From: Escherichia phage DCP2
Sequence record: OR780565.1
Reading direction: 5' to 3' (one strand)
Length of the DNA: 64,000 nt
This document shows positions 5,571 through 48,192 of this stretch, piece after piece. The translations under genes were made by a program, and so were the position numbers. Position 1 is the first letter of the stretch; each line of letters begins with the position of its first letter. The notes beneath the pieces were generated by a model that was not told the origin of the DNA, searched no databases, and saw only the letters and a program-made list of their open reading frames with translations.

Positions 5571-6998
5571 GTGGTAGAAATTATTCTTTCTCATCTCATA
5601 TTTGATCAAGCTTATTTTTCAAAAGTTTGGCCATATATGGATTCAGAATATTTTGAAAGTGGTCCAGCTAAAAATACATTCAAATTAATTAAATCTCATG
5701 TTAATGAGTACCATAGCGTTCCATCTATTAATGCGTTAAATGTTGCATTAGAAAATAGTTCATTTACTGAAACAGAATATTCTGGTGTAAAAACACTTAT
5801 TTCAAAACTAGCTGATTCTCCAGAAGACCACAGCTGGTTAGTAAAAGAAACAGAAAAATATGTTCAGCAAAGGGCGATGTTTAACGCCACATCTAAAATA
5901 ATTGAAATTCAAACCAATGCTGAGCTTCCTCCAGAAAAACGAAATAAGAAAATGCCGGATGTAGGTGCTATTCCTGACATTATGCGCCAAGCATTATCAA
6001 TTTCATTTGATAGCTACGTTGGCCATGATTGGATGGATGACTATGAAGCACGTTGGCTATCTTATATGAATAAAGCTCGTAAGGTTCCATTTAAACTCAA
6101 AATTCTAAATAAAATTACTAAAGGCGGAGCTGAAACTGGAACACTGAATGTTTTAATGGCTGGTGTTAACGTCGGTAAGTCATTAGGTCTGTGTTCATTG
6201 GCAGCAGATTATTTGCAGCTCGGACATAATGTTCTTTACATTTCCATGGAAATGGCAGAAGAAGTCTGTGCTAAGCGTATTGACGCTAACATGCTCGATG
6301 TTTCTCTTGATGACATTGATGACGGGCATATTTCTTACGCTGAGTATAAAGGAAAAATGGAAAAATGGCGTGAGAAATCTACTCTTGGCCGTTTAATCGT
6401 TAAACAGTATCCTACTGGTGGAGCAGACGCTAATACATTTCGATCGCTTTTAAACGAATTAAAGCTCAAGAAGAATTTTGTTCCAACAATCATTATTGTC
6501 GACTATCTAGGTATTTGTAAATCTTGTCGCATCAGAGTTTACTCAGAAAATAGTTACACAACTGTTAAAGCTATCGCAGAGGAATTGCGTGCTCTAGCTG
6601 TTGAAACCGAAACTGTTCTTTGGACTGCAGCACAGGTTGGTAAGCAAGCTTGGGATTCTTCTGATGTTAACATGAGCGATATTGCAGAATCTGCCGGTCT
6701 TCCAGCAACAGCCGATTTTATGCTTGCGGTCATTGAAACCGAGGAGTTAGCAGCGGCTGAACAGCAACTCATTAAGCAAATCAAATCACGATACGGTGAT
6801 AAGAATAAATGGAATAAGTTTTTGATGGGTGTTCAAAAAGGAAATCAGAAATGGGTAGAAATTGAACAAGATTCTACTCCAACTGAAGTGAACGAAGTAG
6901 CAGGTTCACAACAGATACAAGCTGAACAGAATCGCTATCAAAGAAATGAATCTACTCGAGCCCAGTTAGATGCTTTAGCAAACGAATTAAAATTTTAG
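5571..6998 (+). CDS. 41: gp41 replicative DNA helicase
   Basis: 475 aa, GTG start after AGGAG RBS; DnaB-like Walker A (GVNVGKS). Confidence 0.93.
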   Translation: MVEIILSHLIFDQAYFSKVWPYMDSEYFESGPAKNTFKLIKSHVNEYHSVPSINALNVALENSSFTETEYSGVKTLISKLADSPEDHSWLVKETEKYVQQRAMFNATSKIIEIQTNAELPPEKRNKKMPDVGAIPDIMRQALSISFDSYVGHDWMDDYEARWLSYMNKARKVPFKLKILNKITKGGAETGTLNVLMAGVNVGKSLGLCSLAADYLQLGHNVLYISMEMAEEVCAKRIDANMLDVSLDDIDDGHISYAEYKGKMEKWREKSTLGRLIVKQYPTGGADANTFRSLLNELKLKKNFVPTIIIVDYLGICKSCRIRVYSENSYTTVKAIAEELRALAVETETVLWTAAQVGKQAWDSSDVNMSDIAESAGLPATADFMLAVIETEELAAAEQQLIKQIKSRYGDKNKWNKFLMGVQKGNQKWVEIEQDSTPTEVNEVAGSQQIQAEQNRYQRNESTRAQLDALANELKF

Positions 6999-7030
6999 TT
7001 TACAAGCTGACAAGACTATGGTATAGTAGT
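6998..7030 (+). promoter_or_regulatory. T4-type early promoter
   Basis: GTTTAC 6998-7003, -10 TATAGT 7022-7027; -10 flanked by 8-bp inverted repeat CAAGACTA / TAGTCTTG. Confidence 0.6.
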
Positions 7031-7056
7031 CTTGTTGGTTAAATGAGGAGATTGTT

Positions 7057-7485: not shown

Positions 7486-7516
7486 GTTTACAAGCTGATA
7501 GAGTTGTGTTATAGTA
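7486..7516 (+). promoter_or_regulatory. T4-type early promoter
   Basis: GTTTAC 7486-7491, -10 TATAGT 7510-7515; flanked by 10-bp inverted repeat AGCTGATAGA / TCTATCAGCT. Confidence 0.6.
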
Positions 7517-7546
7517 ATTCTATCAGCTAATCGCGGAGAAAAGAAA

Positions 7547-19354: not shown

Positions 19355-19385
19355 GTTTACTTCCTCAGTTAGTTGTGGTATTATA
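19355..19385 (+). promoter_or_regulatory. T4-type early promoter
   Basis: GTTTAC 19355-19360, TATTAT 19379-19384. Confidence 0.6.
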
Positions 19386-19411
19386 ACACCATAGCTACTG
19401 AGGATAATAAA

Positions 19412-19914: not shown

Positions 19915-20460
19915 ATGAAATTTAATTATAATCCTGAATACACACCAAATCCGGTAGCTAAACTGATTGATTTTGATGTTGTAAGCACTTATGTATGCCC
20001 TGTTAAACCACTGGAAATTAAGGAACCTACTATGACTACCACTATTGAAATCGGCAAAACCTACAAACTGGTTGAACCTAAAATTAAAACTAATGCCTTG
20101 ATTTCTGGTCATAAAACTCTGACTGATGTTTTTGGCGAAGGCGAATTTATTGTTGAAGAATTTGCCAAAAGTGAGTGGTTTGACAAATCTTACGTCATCC
20201 ACAGTCGCCGGTTAGATAATAACAAAATAAAGAAAAACCTGGTTTATGAAGATGAGTTCATCCTGTTCCAAGAAGTTGAAGAACAAGACCCTACAGACCT
20301 GTTGTGTGCTGCTGTGTCTATCCGTCGTCCTTTTGATAATCCTATCTGTGGTTGGGTAACAGACCAGTGGGTTGAAGACGGTGTTGAGCTTCTGAACGTT
20401 GTCCATGCAGGAGATTTTAGTGTAGTACCTCGTAGTGCGGTGGTAGCTATTTTAAATTAA
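19915..20460 (+). CDS. hypothetical protein sharing a C-terminal domain with MotB (181 aa)
   Basis: C-terminal WVTDQWVEDGVELLNVV is repeated in the next gene. Confidence 0.55.
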   Translation: MKFNYNPEYTPNPVAKLIDFDVVSTYVCPVKPLEIKEPTMTTTIEIGKTYKLVEPKIKTNALISGHKTLTDVFGEGEFIVEEFAKSEWFDKSYVIHSRRLDNNKIKKNLVYEDEFILFQEVEEQDPTDLLCAAVSIRRPFDNPICGWVTDQWVEDGVELLNVVHAGDFSVVPRSAVVAILN

Positions 20461-20462
20461 TA

Positions 20463-20492
20463 GTTTACAAACTCTTGGGACCAGAGTATAAT
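20463..20492 (+). promoter_or_regulatory. T4-type early promoter
   Basis: GTTTAC 20463-20468, TATAAT 20487-20492 flanked by GGACCA / TGGTCC inverted repeat. Confidence 0.6.
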
Positions 20493-20536
20493 GGTCCTGT
20501 GGAGTATAAAATCTTTTTAACAAGTGAGAGATAACT

Positions 20537-21025
20537 ATGATTATTAATATTGGTGAAATTGCTCGTGTATCTGATAAATCCCGTTCTAAAGCAGCAGGAA
20601 AATTGGTCGAAATTGCAAGCATTCAGCTTAAACATGGCGTTAAAGATGAAGATTCTGAAGTAAAAGTGCGTATCATTCCTAAAGATGGAAAGTCTAAACC
20701 TCAGTTTGGCTATGTTCGTGCGAAATTTCTTGAATCTGCGTTTTTGAAAGCTGTTCCTGCTAAAGGAATTGAAACGATTGATACTTCACATGTAGGTGTA
20801 GACTTTAAGTGGAAACTCGGTCAGGCTATTAAGTTCATTGCTCCTCATGAATTTAAATTTATCAAAGATGGTGGTGCGGCTGTTTATACTCGTGCTATGT
20901 GCGCATACATTACTGATCAGTGGGTAGAAGATGGTGTTAAGCTGTACAACGTGGTATTTTTAGGAACATACAAAGTCATTCCTGAAAGCTGGATTAAACA
21001 CTATAGCAAAGCTCTCTATGCATAA
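20537..21025 (+). CDS. motB: MotB-like protein (162 aa)
   Basis: 162 aa, position between dexA cluster and gene 39 as in T4. Confidence 0.55.
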   Translation: MIINIGEIARVSDKSRSKAAGKLVEIASIQLKHGVKDEDSEVKVRIIPKDGKSKPQFGYVRAKFLESAFLKAVPAKGIETIDTSHVGVDFKWKLGQAIKFIAPHEFKFIKDGGAAVYTRAMCAYITDQWVEDGVKLYNVVFLGTYKVIPESWIKHYSKALYA

Positions 21026-21055
21026 AGTTTAAAATTTTTTCATAAAACTATATAC

Positions 21056-21098
21056 ATCAGTAGTTGATTATGGTACTATATCAATATCAACTACTGAT
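21056..21098 (+). repeat. 13-bp perfect inverted repeat enclosing a promoter -10-like element
   Basis: ATCAGTAGTTGAT (21056-21068) and ATCAACTACTGAT (21086-21098) separated by 17 nt containing TATGGTACTATATCAAT. Confidence 0.8.
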
Positions 21099-21197
21099 AC
21101 AGAAAACAACTTAGAGAATAAAATGGAAAATTTGCCAAAGGTGCTGCTACTCTTCTGAAACGCATCACTCCAATGTTCAATTAATGAGGAAATTGTA

Positions 21198-21413
21198 ATG
21201 AAACGTAAAATTGTTCAGAACTGCACTAATGACGAATTTGAAGATGTATTATTTGATCCAGATTTGGTAGTGGTTCAAAAAGAACATACCGTTAAGTTTA
21301 CTCACTTGACTTCGGTTTATGTGTATGAAAAGGTTGGTGATAAACAACCAATTTATGGCGTATTTCGTGAAATTACTGAAGATGGCACAACTTACTGGAA
21401 GGAAATTTATTAA
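21198..21413 (+). CDS. hypothetical protein (71 aa)
   Basis: GAGGAAA RBS. Confidence 0.5.
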
Positions 21414-21832
21414 TGGCTATTAGATTTGAAGTTAATAAATGGTATCAATTTAAAAATAAACAAGCTCAAGAAAATTTTATTAAAGACCATACTGATAACA
21501 GAATCTATGCACGACGTTTAGGTATGGAACCTTTTAAAATTTTAGATGTTGACTATTACGGGCGTCCTACTAAAATTGTGACATCTACTGGCATAATTGG
21601 ATATTCAACATATGGTACAGTCATTGACGAAAACTTTATCTGGCTCTCTACTAACGAAGCTGGGTTCTTTGATGAAGTGGAAAATCCATATCAGGTTGCT
21701 GAAGAACAAGAGCAGGAAGAGCAAGAACAAATAGAAGATTTCACAGAATTCCCGGTAATGAAAGTTACTATTGAAAATAATGAACAGGCATGGTCCTTGT
21801 ATCAGATGTTGAAAGCACACTTTAAGGAATAA
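21413..21832 (+). CDS. hypothetical protein with acidic EQ-rich segment (139 aa)
   Basis: ATGA-type overlap with upstream ORF. Confidence 0.5.
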
Positions 21833-22667: not shown

Positions 22668-22719
22668 AGCTTTATGATTACTGGAGTATAATATTCCCGA
22701 AACCAAACGAGGATAAGTG

Positions 22720-24537
22720 ATGATTAAGAATGAAATTAAAATTCTGAGCGATATTGAACATATCAAAAAGCGTAGCGGCATGTACATTGGTTCTTCTGCT
22801 AATGAAATGCATGAGCGCTTTCTGTTTGGTAAATGGGAAAGTGTTCAGTATGTACCTGGTCTTGTTAAGCTTATTGATGAAATTATCGATAACTCAGTAG
22901 ATGAAGGTATTCGTACTAAGTTTAAATTCGCAAATAAAATTAATGTTACCATTAAAAATAATCAGGTAACAGTTGAAGATAACGGTCGTGGTATTCCACA
23001 GGCGATGGTTAAAACACCTACCGGTGAAGAAATTCCTGGTCCTGTTGCTGCCTGGACTATTCCAAAAGCAGGTGGTAACTTTGGTGATGATAAAGAACGC
23101 GTCACCGGCGGTATGAACGGTGTTGGTTCTAGTTTAACTAACATTTTTTCTGTGATGTTTGTCGGTGAAACTGGCGACGGTCAAAATAATATTGTGGTTC
23201 GCTGCTCGAATGGCATGGAAAATAAATCATGGGAAGATATTCCTGGAAAATGGAAAGGAACTCGCGTTACTTTCATTCCTGATTTTATGTCATTTGAAAC
23301 TAATGAGCTATCTCAAGTTTATCTTGACATTACACTAGATCGTCTCCAGACACTTGCGGTAGTTTATCCTGATATTCAATTTACCTTTAATGGTAAAAAG
23401 GTTCAGGGTAATTTTAAGAAATATGCACGCCAATATGATGAACATGCTATTGTTCAAGAACAAGAAAATTGTTCTATTGCGGTTGGTCGTTCACCGGATG
23501 GTTTTCGTCAATTAACATACGTCAATAACATTCATACTAAGAATGGTGGCCATCACATTGACTGTGTTATGGATGATATTTGTGAAGACCTTATTCCACA
23601 AATCAAACGTAAATTCAAAATTGATGTAACTAAAGCACGTGTTAAAGAATGTTTGACTATCGTTATGTTTGTCCGTGATATGAAAAACATGCGATTTGAT
23701 TCTCAAACTAAAGAGCGTTTGACTTCTCCATTTGGTGAAATTCGTAGTCATATTCAGCTTGATGCTAAAAAGATTTCACGTGCTATTTTGAATAATGAAG
23801 CAATTTTAATGCCAATCATTGAAGCTGCTTTGGCTCGTAAATTGGCGGCAGAAAAAGCAGCAGAAACTAAAGCAGCTAAAAAGGCTTCTAAAGCTAAGGT
23901 TCATAAACATATTAAAGCGAATCTTTGTGGTAAAGATGCTGACACTACTCTTTTCTTGACTGAGGGTGATTCTGCTATTGGATATCTTATTGATGTTCGT
24001 GATAAAGAACTTCATGGTGGTTATCCATTGCGTGGTAAAGTTCTTAACAGTTGGGGTATGTCATATGCTGATATGCTTAAAAACAAAGAACTATTTGATA
24101 TTTGCGCAATCACTGGATTAGTTCTTGGTGAAAAAGCTGAAAACTTGAATTATCATAATATTGCAATTATGACCGATGCTGACCATGATGGTCTAGGAAG
24201 CATTTATCCTTCTCTGCTCGGATTTTTTAGTAATTGGCCAGAATTGTTTGAACAAGGAAGAATTCGCTTTGTCAAAACTCCTGTAATCATCGCTCAGGTA
24301 GGTAAAAAACAAGAATGGTTTTATACAGTCGCTGAATATGAGAGTGCTAAAGATGCTCTACCTAAACATAGCATCCGTTATATTAAGGGACTTGGCTCTT
24401 TGGAAAAATCTGAATATCGCGAGATGATTCAAAACCCAGTATATGATGTTGTTAAACTTCCTGAGAACTGGAAAGAGCTTTTTGAAATGCTCATGGGAGA
24501 TAATGCTGACCTTCGTAAAGAATGGATGAGCCAGTAG
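22720..24537 (+). CDS. 39: DNA topoisomerase II large subunit gp39, uninterrupted (605 aa)
   Basis: GHKL ATPase and TOPRIM regions in a single ORF that includes the part encoded by separate gene 60 in T4. Confidence 0.92.
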   Translation: MIKNEIKILSDIEHIKKRSGMYIGSSANEMHERFLFGKWESVQYVPGLVKLIDEIIDNSVDEGIRTKFKFANKINVTIKNNQVTVEDNGRGIPQAMVKTPTGEEIPGPVAAWTIPKAGGNFGDDKERVTGGMNGVGSSLTNIFSVMFVGETGDGQNNIVVRCSNGMENKSWEDIPGKWKGTRVTFIPDFMSFETNELSQVYLDITLDRLQTLAVVYPDIQFTFNGKKVQGNFKKYARQYDEHAIVQEQENCSIAVGRSPDGFRQLTYVNNIHTKNGGHHIDCVMDDICEDLIPQIKRKFKIDVTKARVKECLTIVMFVRDMKNMRFDSQTKERLTSPFGEIRSHIQLDAKKISRAILNNEAILMPIIEAALARKLAAEKAAETKAAKKASKAKVHKHIKANLCGKDADTTLFLTEGDSAIGYLIDVRDKELHGGYPLRGKVLNSWGMSYADMLKNKELFDICAITGLVLGEKAENLNYHNIAIMTDADHDGLGSIYPSLLGFFSNWPELFEQGRIRFVKTPVIIAQVGKKQEWFYTVAEYESAKDALPKHSIRYIKGLGSLEKSEYREMIQNPVYDVVKLPENWKELFEMLMGDNADLRKEWMSQ

Positions 24538-47226: not shown

Positions 47227-47542
47227 TATTCGTCCGGTCGATGAGACCGGTCTTTCAGAAAAAGAACTTTCAATCAAGAAAGAAAAGGATGAAATAGCAA
47301 AGCTTCTTGATCGTCAAGAAAATGGATTTATTATTGAAAAAATGGTAGAAGAATTTGGAATGAGTTATCTTGAAGCTACAACAGCATTTTTGGAAGAAAA
47401 CTCTATTCCTGAAACTCAATTTGCTAAATTTATTCCTTCGGGTATAATTGAAAAAATTCAGTCAGAAGCCATTGACGAAAATCTTTTACGTCCTTCTGTT
47501 GTTCGTTGCGAAAAAACTAATACATTAGATTTTCTACTATGA
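47204..47542 (+). CDS. 33: gp33 late transcription co-activator
   Basis: 112 aa from ATG 47204 (MTQFSLNDIRPVDETG), overlapping dsbA end. Confidence 0.85.
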   Translation: MTQFSLNDIRPVDETGLSEKELSIKKEKDEIAKLLDRQENGFIIEKMVEEFGMSYLEATTAFLEENSIPETQFAKFIPSGIIEKIQSEAIDENLLRPSVVRCEKTNTLDFLL

Positions 47543-48192
47543 TTAAACTCCGCATGCCTGCTGGTGGTGAAAGATACATTGATGGTAAATCAGTTTATAA
47601 ATTATACTTAATGATAAAACAACATATGAATGGAAAGTATGATGTAATTAAGTATAATTGGTGCATGCGGGTGTCTGATGCCGCTTATCAAAAGCGAAGG
47701 GATAAGTATTTTTTCCAGAAGTTATCAGAAAAATATAAATTAAAGGAACTTGCTTTAATCTTTATAAGCAATCTGGTTGCTAACCAGGATGCTTGGATTG
47801 GTGACATCTCTGACGCTGATGCACTTGTGTTTTATCGTGAATATATCGGACGCTTAAAGCAAATTAAATTTAAGTTTGAAGAAGATATTCGCAACATTTA
47901 TTATTTTAGTAAAAAAGTTGAAGTTTCTGCTTTTAAAGAAATCTTTGAGTATAATCCAAAAGTTCAATCAAGTTATATTTTTAAACTACTTCAATCGAAT
48001 ATAATTTCGTTTGAGACGTTTATCTTGCTTGATTCGTTTTTAAATATAATCGATAAACATGATGAACAGACTGATAATTTAGTCTGGAATAATTATTCTA
48101 TAAAGTTAAAAGCTTATAGAAAAATTTTAAATATTGATTCACAGAAAGCTAAAAGTGTTTTCATTGAAACTGTGAAATCTTGCAAGTATTAA
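47539..48192 (+). CDS. 59: gp59 helicase loader
   Basis: 217 aa, ATGA overlap with 33; matches T4 gp59. Confidence 0.88.
   Translation: MIKLRMPAGGERYIDGKSVYKLYLMIKQHMNGKYDVIKYNWCMRVSDAAYQKRRDKYFFQKLSEKYKLKELALIFISNLVANQDAWIGDISDADALVFYREYIGRLKQIKFKFEEDIRNIYYFSKKVEVSAFKEIFEYNPKVQSSYIFKLLQSNIISFETFILLDSFLNIIDKHDEQTDNLVWNNYSIKLKAYRKILNIDSQKAKSVFIETVKSCKY

Follow-up and report, generated by a model that had tools for sequence, protein, structure and literature searches.

Promoter-early stem-loop (PeSL) cassettes are defined by an A/T tract, a sigma-70 promoter, a stem-loop that commonly overlaps the -10 element, and a Shine-Dalgarno sequence (SD) with an ATG, and they are found at indel-rich regions (Arbiol et al., 2010, PMC2839356; Comeau et al., 2014, PMC4122927). 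The function of such a stem-loop has been assayed so far for one example from phage RB49, which cut lacZ read-through as strongly as rrnB T1 (PMC2839356). Related arrangements are the leader hairpins of the T4 genes e, soc, 49, and I-TevI, in which a late promoter lies in the DNA coding for the 5' strand or the loop of the hairpin, with the result that long transcripts fold and locally started ones cannot (PMC3014915), and the bacterial promoter-coupled terminators, in which end and start signals overlap on short DNA (Fletcher et al., bioRxiv 10.64898/2026.08.19.745784). Here, we analyzed a 43-nucleotide (nt) inverted repeat at positions 21056-21098 of a 64,000-nt stretch of Escherichia phage DCP2 (OR780565.1), in the following termed the window, which represents a T-even (Tequatrovirus) phage and is read along the early-gene strand. 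The repeat lies in the gap between motB and cef, which is collinear in T4, where the 43-nt element is identical (T4 6582-6624, minus strand). The repeat is genuine, its conservation is strong, and it looks functional; its class has been described before, and the element is probably a PeSL-type promoter/stem-loop copy of the T-even early-promoter cassette.

The early-promoter cassette in the motB-cef gap

An earlier note on this DNA had described a promoter-like -10 element without a consensus -35 inside the repeat and had pointed out that no GTTTAC lies at the expected distance. The latter is literally true, and the loop of the repeat does carry a -10 of the early-promoter type (TGgTACTAT). 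However, this is not an orphan -10, as it is preceded at the exact spacing of 17 bp by aTATACA and further upstream by an A/T-rich tract, and the region aligns and scores like canonical early promoters. When the window was scanned with the T4/PST early-promoter consensus TTTACW-N17-TAYWAT (PMC4122927), the TATACA-N17-TACTAT of the site matched the -35 at 5/6 and the -10 at 6/6 positions. A general consensus scan for promoters and terminators with a cut-off of 9/12 hexamer matches called neither of the two at the site, which reached 8/12. Because this general scan missed the site, we built a cassette-specific position weight matrix (PWM) from 19 canonical early promoters of the window, leaving out the site itself. 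With this matrix, the site scored 39.8 bits against a background of -49 +/- 12.5, ranked 14th of ~128,000 window positions, and exceeded 6 of the 19 training promoters.

The A/T-rich, UP-like tract AGTTTAAAATTTTTTCATAAAACTA (21026..21050, + strand) has 88% A+T, starts directly after the motB stop codon, and aligns with the TTCACAAAAC(T/A)G of canonical early promoters; its part of the PWM score is 8.2 bits (canonical mean 11.9). The -35 hexamer TATACA (21051..21056, + strand; canonical TTTACA) is preceded by A instead of G and was, with 4.5 versus 9.3 bits, the only part of the cassette rated sub-par. The spacer comprises exactly 17 bp (21057-21073) and includes the TG of the extended -10 at -15/-14 (21071-21072), which is followed by the -10 hexamer TACTAT (21074-21079). 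The predicted transcription start at ~21086 (T4 6594) coincides with the first base of the right arm of the repeat, and the downstream region with the leader box scored 12.1 bits (mean of the canonical promoters, 9.5). An SD and start codon of the form (A/G)GAG-N6-ATG follow at 21113-21125, and the ATG opens a short remnant of an open reading frame (ORF). The SD itself (21113..21116, + strand) is AGAG in the window, whereas all inspected relatives have GGAG. The A in place of G at 21113 affects the SD of a dead ORF, and GGAG is also the motif of the RegB endoribonuclease.

The whole 105-bp region is a copy of a repeated T-even early-promoter cassette. Its bases line up one by one with those of canonical early promoters, both in the window and in T4, and when used as a query, the region finds 3-6 matching places per phage genome, with six in the window. 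The canonical copies at 1530, 28818, 29324, 32464, 49859, and 50856 follow the pattern ttcaCaaaac-tG-TTTACA-N12-(c/t)(a/g)TGG-TACTAT-acaact-ATCAACTAC-(a/g)GAGGA, to which the studied cassette corresponds with ttcaTaaaac-tA-TATACA-tcagtagttgat-taTGG-TACTAT-atcaat-ATCAACTAC-tgatac. A closely similar cassette is present in CCU7/BCU-2, where the genes on both sides lack counterparts in the window, and together with the multiple matches, this copy identifies the region as a repeated cassette that occurs in unrelated gene contexts. We had considered the canonical-looking CCU7/BCU-2 cassette as a hairpin-less allele of the same locus, but its flanks are unrelated, and it is a paralogue.

In comparison to a paralogous canonical cassette (spacer TCCCTGTTCTTC), 8 of 12 compared spacer positions differ, and each of the eight differences adds complementarity with the leader box. 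An inner helix results from three additional changes (ACAACT -> ATCAAT), the -35 is weakened by two more, and the remainder is nearly unchanged. The left arm of the repeat may have arisen by templated conversion of the quasi-palindrome type. In summary of its parts, the site can be regarded as a predicted sigma-70 promoter of the UP/TGn/-10 type, in which the -35 is weakened; this promoter (TATACA-N17-TGgTACTAT) would start transcription at ~21086 toward the remnant ORF, cef, and goF.

The inverted repeat and its RNA fold

The earlier note had reported a perfect inverted repeat of 13 bp, and both arms and the 17-nt loop are exactly as it stated. The left arm ATCAGTAGTTGAT (21056..21068, + strand) fills the promoter spacer from -30 to -18 and has the reverse-complementary sequence of the leader box. 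The right arm ATCAACTACTGAT (21086..21098, + strand) corresponds to the predicted +1 to +13 and is identical to the leader box ATCAACTAC of the early-promoter cassette family. Between the perfectly complementary arms, the loop TATGGTACTATATCAAT (21069..21085, + strand) holds the TG, the -10, and one more short helix. As + strand RNA, the element folds into 13 bp, a 2x2 internal loop, an inner helix of 5 bp with one G.U pair (21071-21075 with 21079-21083, formed in the + strand only), and a CUA triloop. The RNA hairpin has a stability of -20.2 kcal/mol (z = -5.5), and none of 200 shuffled sequences (0/200) was equally stable. An Rfam scan of 20500-21700 at a permissive E-value gave only chance-level matches (E >= 4), none of them on the hairpin.

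The claim that this is the longest perfect palindrome of the intergenic regions was borne out by a scan of the whole window for perfect inverted repeats with loops of 3-40 nt. At 13 bp, it is the joint longest of the window, and the other one, at 47600-47659 (AATTATACTTAAT/ATTAAGTATAATT, 34-nt loop), lies within the ORF 47539-48192. As one of 30 64-kb sequences simulated with a first-order Markov model also reached 13 bp, the significance of repeat length by itself is borderline. A chance origin is nevertheless untenable because of the context: when spacers and leaders of real early promoters were paired in mismatched combinations, complementarity did not exceed 8 bp, and the element is conserved far better than its flanks, as described below.

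Conservation and orthologous hairpins

The 43-nt element was 100% identical in 479 of 497 full-length GenBank phage matches (96%), in comparison to mostly 90-95% identity to the window in the equal-length (43-nt) flanks on both sides. A comparison with T4, T2, and T6, as the earlier note had proposed, showed the repeat to be conserved in all three. In the sole variant that was inspected (IME537), 1 nt is inserted into the loop, and the arms are intact. A loop-anchored search for arm variation in IMG/VR returned five T4-like contigs with identical arms and otherwise unrelated matches.

More distant hairpins were found with a set of 17 viral contigs that encode Cef homologues. Five close contigs carry the identical hairpin. 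In divergent relatives, whose Cef is 53-68% identical, a canonical GTTTAC promoter lies directly 5' of cef, and its -10 is again inside an inverted repeat with other arms, namely GGTGTAGG/CCTACACC, TTGGTGTAGGAG/CTCCTACACCAA, TGGTAGGAGC/GCTCCTACCA, GGTAGGA/TCCTACC, AGGGCTAT/ATAGCCCT, and GGTCTAT/ATAGACC. Of the seven divergent cassettes that were folded, six gave hairpins of -16.8 to -21.8 kcal/mol (z -3.5 to -5.6), with one lineage being weak, and hairpin-less paralogous cassettes fold no better than shuffled sequences. In an ungapped, promoter-framed alignment of eight cassette sequences, 82% of the alignment cells were paired, compared to 31-48% in slid registers. Double-sided changes occurred in 6 of 14 pairs, and the covariation score was reached by 0 of 500 shuffles, with the reservation that the sequences are few and related and that the structure was derived from the same sequences on which it was counted. 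The orthologous hairpins covary.

The most distant relative, contig L022, has an intrinsic terminator at the cef-upstream site (1416-1470), composed of AAAAGAGG..CCTCTTTT and a T-run. The loop of this terminator is the -35 TTTACA, and the T-run is the spacer of a promoter with a TATTAT -10 (AAAAGAGG-TTTACA-AGACCTCTTTTATTTTG-TATTAT).

Existing annotations treat the site differently. In MZ726795, the orthologous 51 bp (5873-5923) are annotated as a rho-independent terminator (WebGeSTer), and the T2 record AP018813 labels the leader box at 6093-6112 as 'attL', a feature that stems from a 20-bp repeat call there and is not an attachment site. The T4 records AF158101 and NC_000866 contain no regulatory features at the site, and none of the inspected records annotates a promoter in the motB-cef gap. 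We found no publication that prints the arm or loop sequences and no promoter name of the type 'Pe6.x'.

Spacer/leader complementarity at other early promoters

Hairpins between spacer and leader are general among the early promoters of the window. Perfect spacer/leader complementarity of at least 6 bp was found at 11 of 22 canonical early promoters, at least 7 bp at five, and at least 8 bp at three, whereas mismatched spacer/leader pairings reached these lengths in only 13%, 4%, and 0.65% of cases, respectively. In permutation tests, p was <0.0005 for the mean and 0.0015 for the count of at least 7 bp. Examples are the promoters at 6999 (9 bp), 7487 (10 bp), 61994 (7 bp), and 19356 (8 bp). 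At two adjacent early promoters (GTTTACA at 7486 and 6998), 7493-7502 pairs with 7519-7528 (10 bp) and 7010-7018 with 7027-7035 (9 bp), and the -10 is enclosed or overlapped in both cases. The -10 comes to lie in the loop because the arms use only those promoter segments that are free in sequence, the spacer and the initially transcribed region.

At 19356, 9609, and 58688, the right arm covers the SD. The spacer of each of these promoters is complementary to the downstream SD; at 19356, for example, 19362-19369 pairs with 19397-19404 (TCCTCAGT/ACTGAGGA). At all three, the SD would be masked in read-through RNA and not in locally started RNA, which represents an early-promoter analogue of the T4 e/soc/49 device.

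Transcription across the hairpin and its possible function

The left arm lies 5' of the cassette's own predicted start, and the hairpin can therefore form only in read-through RNA and not in locally started RNA. Such read-through RNA would most likely originate from the canonical early promoter of motB (20464..20492, + strand; GTTTACA-N17-TATAAT; PWM 29.9 bits), and on this RNA, the hairpin would mark the boundary of two transcription units. Rather than terminating transcription efficiently, it would block 3'-to-5' decay, serve as a processing site, or weakly attenuate transcription. We rank a 3'-exonuclease barrier or a processing site that may define the end of the motB message first, and a weak attenuator second. 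The suggestion of the earlier note that the repeat could be an RNA processing site is viable in this sense, as one form of an RNA-level element.

Expression was assessed with published T4 RNA-seq data (PMC6024815, Table S1; 5 min post infection, 18 libraries). The wild-type read densities were 24.1 (motB.1), 32.6 (motB), 32.8 (cef), and 41.2 (goF) reads per nt. The cef/motB density ratio ranged from 0.96 to 1.67 with a median of 1.29 in the 18 libraries, and for the motB/motB.1 ratio, which spans the canonical motB promoter, the median was 1.52. In T4, there is no net RNA loss across the hairpin, as judged from steady-state gene-level counts, in which no effect and partial termination with re-initiation are indistinguishable. 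The modest gain of cef over motB fits a weaker promoter.

Several points weigh against the view that a PeSL-type cassette with an RNA-level hairpin is present at this site. Besides the limits given above for the expression ratios and the covariation score, these are the departure of the -35 from the GTTTAC that is otherwise invariant in the early promoters of the window and the invariance of the arms within Tequatrovirus, with the consequence that covariation comes only from more distant hairpins, which are not identical and have their dyad axis displaced by 2.5 nt. The hairpin also ends at 21098, 14 nt 5' of the SD, without obvious masking of the ribosome-binding site, and the PST figure legend of Comeau et al. 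places the stem-loops 'just upstream of' the promoter and not around the -10 (PMC4122927). The promoter is a predicted one, and the literature that we searched contained neither a mapped 5' or 3' end at the site nor a genome-wide map of T4 transcription starts or 3' ends.

Alternative explanations

An unlikely alternative, which nevertheless survives best, is that RNase III or another endonuclease cuts the hairpin and thereby parts motB from the cef-goF mRNA on read-through RNA. The 18-bp helix of the T4 group with its 2x2 internal loop extends over about two helical turns, and it is present only in read-through RNA. Such a helix resembles the RNase III sites of phage T7. On the other hand, the divergent orthologous hairpins comprise only 8-13 bp with 4-nt loops, and typical RNase III substrates are longer than that. 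Moreover, RNase III is not mentioned in the review of T4 post-transcriptional control (PMC3014915).

With a lower probability, the hairpin could be a rho-independent terminator that ends the motB transcript. The annotation in MZ726795 says so, the assayed RB49 stem-loop was an efficient one, and the hairpin begins 30 nt past the motB stop codon. However, a U-tract after the hairpin is absent, as the tail ACAGAAAACAAC contains no U in its first 12 nt, and the stem is A/T-rich, with only 4 G-C pairs among its 13 bp. The terminator scan makes no call at the site, and the read density in T4 does not fall between motB and cef. A hairpin with a T-run was found only in the most distant relative, L022.

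Equally improbable is a further interpretation in which the -10-centered dyad, here and at about half of the T-even early promoters, is also a structure-specific DNA signal, a hairpin or cruciform on transiently unwound or single-stranded DNA. If this were true, a pre-melted -10 could be offered to sigma-70, or the structure could be cut or resolved, for example by endonuclease VII, to drive excision and insertion of promoter-flanked gene cassettes. The dyad would then be the cis-acting site of a dedicated gene-shuffling mechanism.

Slightly less credit still can be given to an operator, as had been suggested earlier, at which a DNA-binding protein reads both arms and represses or activates the enclosed promoter. 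The perfect preservation of both arms in the 479 of 497 genomes would agree with this, as would the position of the arms on either side of the -10 and the internal 4+4 dyad symmetry of each arm, which reads ATCA-N5-TGAT. A sequence-specific operator is unlikely, though, since the right arm is the generic leader box, which is found at other early promoters without the left arm, and since no second copy of the left arm, with up to one mismatch, exists in the window. In addition, divergent relatives have replaced the arm sequences and kept the complementarity, including G.U pairs that are mismatches in DNA. MotB binds DNA without specificity for such a site (PMC6070864), and a MotA box is lacking.

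There is also little to recommend a function of the DNA as such, either as a cruciform or hairpin that modulates promoter melting or as a structure-specific recombination site for PeSL shuffling. In its favor, the dyad axis lies in the -10 hexamer at all hairpin-bearing promoters that were examined, and indels cluster at the cassette borders, with a motB paralogue at the 5' border and ORF deletions at the 3' border; Arbiol et al. have speculated that the stem-loop is a target of recombination proteins. The DNA hairpins are weak, however, with -11.5 and -10.9 kcal/mol for the two strands, and their 17-nt loops are unfavorable for extrusion. The inner helix and several orthologous pairs involve G.U, which only + strand RNA allows; the location of the two unconstrained promoter segments offers a simpler explanation for the position of the dyad, and the recombination junctions are in the A/T tract and the SD region and not in the stem. 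An example is CrRp10, in which an extra motB paralogue has been inserted at the A/T tract and is flanked by duplicated GCATAAAGTTTAA.

The least probable explanation is a neutral by-product, in which a one-off templated quasi-palindrome strand-switch, a mechanism reportedly known from Ripley's T4 rII work, placed a complementary copy of the leader box in the spacer, without any function: the differences from the paralogue are clustered in the spacer and all create complementarity, like a single templated event, but the hairpin is the locally most conserved stretch (96% of the genomes being identical) while the adjoining pseudogene decays, independent orthologous hairpins are maintained with compensatory changes, and the architecture is enriched among early promoters.

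Two other readings are not supported, the second of which had been offered in the earlier note. A MotA target finds no support, as -35 to -26 reads TATACATCAG and contains no MotA box (TGCTT core) at -30, as no middle-promoter start has been mapped in T4 between 5349 and 10058, and as expression is MotA-independent, with RNA levels of motB, cef, and goF going up about 2-fold instead of dropping in a T4 motA-amber infection. The same applies to an origin-associated structure, since the element, at 6.6 kb in T4, matches none of the mapped origins (oriA, C, E, F, G), oriA having been placed near soc, several kb away, and since T4 origins share no such local motif according to a review.

Local gene order and neighboring genes

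In the window, motB is preceded by dexA and two small ORFs and is followed, after a gap of 172 bp, by cef, goF, 39.2, 39.1, and a fused gene 39 that encodes 606 amino acids (aa). The upstream gene motB (20537..21025, + strand) encodes 162 aa and is annotated as MotB in T4 and relatives. The first intact gene 3' of the cassette is cef (21198..21413, + strand). Between them, the ORF remnant at 21123..21158 (+ strand) retains 11 codons of an 89-aa ORF (phrog_3720) of unknown function, which has suffered a 208-bp out-of-frame internal deletion between short A-runs. This deletion is common to the window and T4. The 89-aa ORF is intact in T2, EcNP1, and CrRp10, and it is absent in ES26, in which the SD of the cassette is directly fused to cef. 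Further small indels are found among relatives in the remnant (21123-21158, and 21159-21197), which is consistent with decay.

Some further observations concern the neighboring genes. MotB-like sequences were noted at 19915-20460 of the window and at 1106-1525 of contig L003: the ORF 5' of motB encodes a MotB-like C-terminal domain (phrog_1671, DQWVEDGVELLNVV), and some relatives (CrRp10, A6-6, KFS-EC3) have a third MotB-like paralogue inserted between motB and the cassette. Gene 39, the large subunit of topoisomerase II (22717-24537), is a single ORF of 606 aa, whereas T4 has it split into genes 39 and 60. The window therewith combines a T2/T6-like gene 39 with a T4-like deletion in the motB-cef gap.

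Implications and comparison with known systems

In annotations of T4 and about 500 relatives, the motB-cef gap is better described as a promoter/stem-loop cassette, and it is a poor candidate for a terminator. With a perfect and invariant hairpin, a weakened -35, and a decaying pseudogene next door, the locus is a clean natural case that suits tests of what the stem-loop of such cassettes does. Its points of interest are the combination of a weakened -35 with a stem that is the longest and least variable one in the family, the lack of net termination in T4, and the covarying orthologous hairpins. Because spacer/leader complementarity is enriched throughout the window and hairpins covary 5' of cef, our analysis suggests a more general rule, namely that T-even phages mark read-through RNA apart from locally initiated RNA at early promoters, as is known at a few late promoters.

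Among the described systems, the PeSL cassettes agree best with the locus in the order of their parts, as an A/T tract is followed here by an early promoter, an overlapping stem-loop (at -30 to -18/+1 to +13), and an SD with a start codon. The overlap with the -10 is one of the two commonest stem-loop positions listed for PeSL cassettes, the promoter spacing is the same, and the TACTAT of the site conforms to the consensus for T4 and PST, with one deviating position in the -35. As described for PeSL cassettes, the unit is repeated around the genome and lies in a dispensable, indel-rich region with indels at the cassette borders. It differs in its degenerate -35 (aTATACA instead of GTTTACA) and in its stem, which is long (13+5 bp) and A/T-rich, is followed by no U-tract, and causes no net termination in the T4 RNA-seq data.

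The canonical T4 early promoters, the 'uber' promoters with UP, -35, TGn, and -10 elements (Hinton, 2010, PMC2988021), are matched in the UP-like tract, the TGn, the -10, and the conserved flanks, and the PWM score is in the canonical range. The differences are two deviating positions in the -35 and a spacer that is perfectly complementary to the leader. With the T4 leader hairpins of e, soc, 49, and I-TevI, the element shares a promoter inside the hairpin-coding DNA and, given the predicted +1, the folding of long but not of local transcripts. Those hairpins, however, belong to late promoters, and their 3' strand sequesters the SD or AUG, whereas the promoter studied here is of the early class, and its SD at 21113-21116 lies beyond the hairpin and is unmasked. 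In common with the bacterial promoter-coupled terminators, an RNA-level signal and a start signal overlap on short DNA. In the bacterial arrangement, the stem-loop DNA provides the -35, the T-tract serves as the spacer, and the -10 follows, in contrast to the -10 in the loop and the missing T-tract of the present element. It is the distant relative L022 that shows this bacterial layout at the site upstream of cef.

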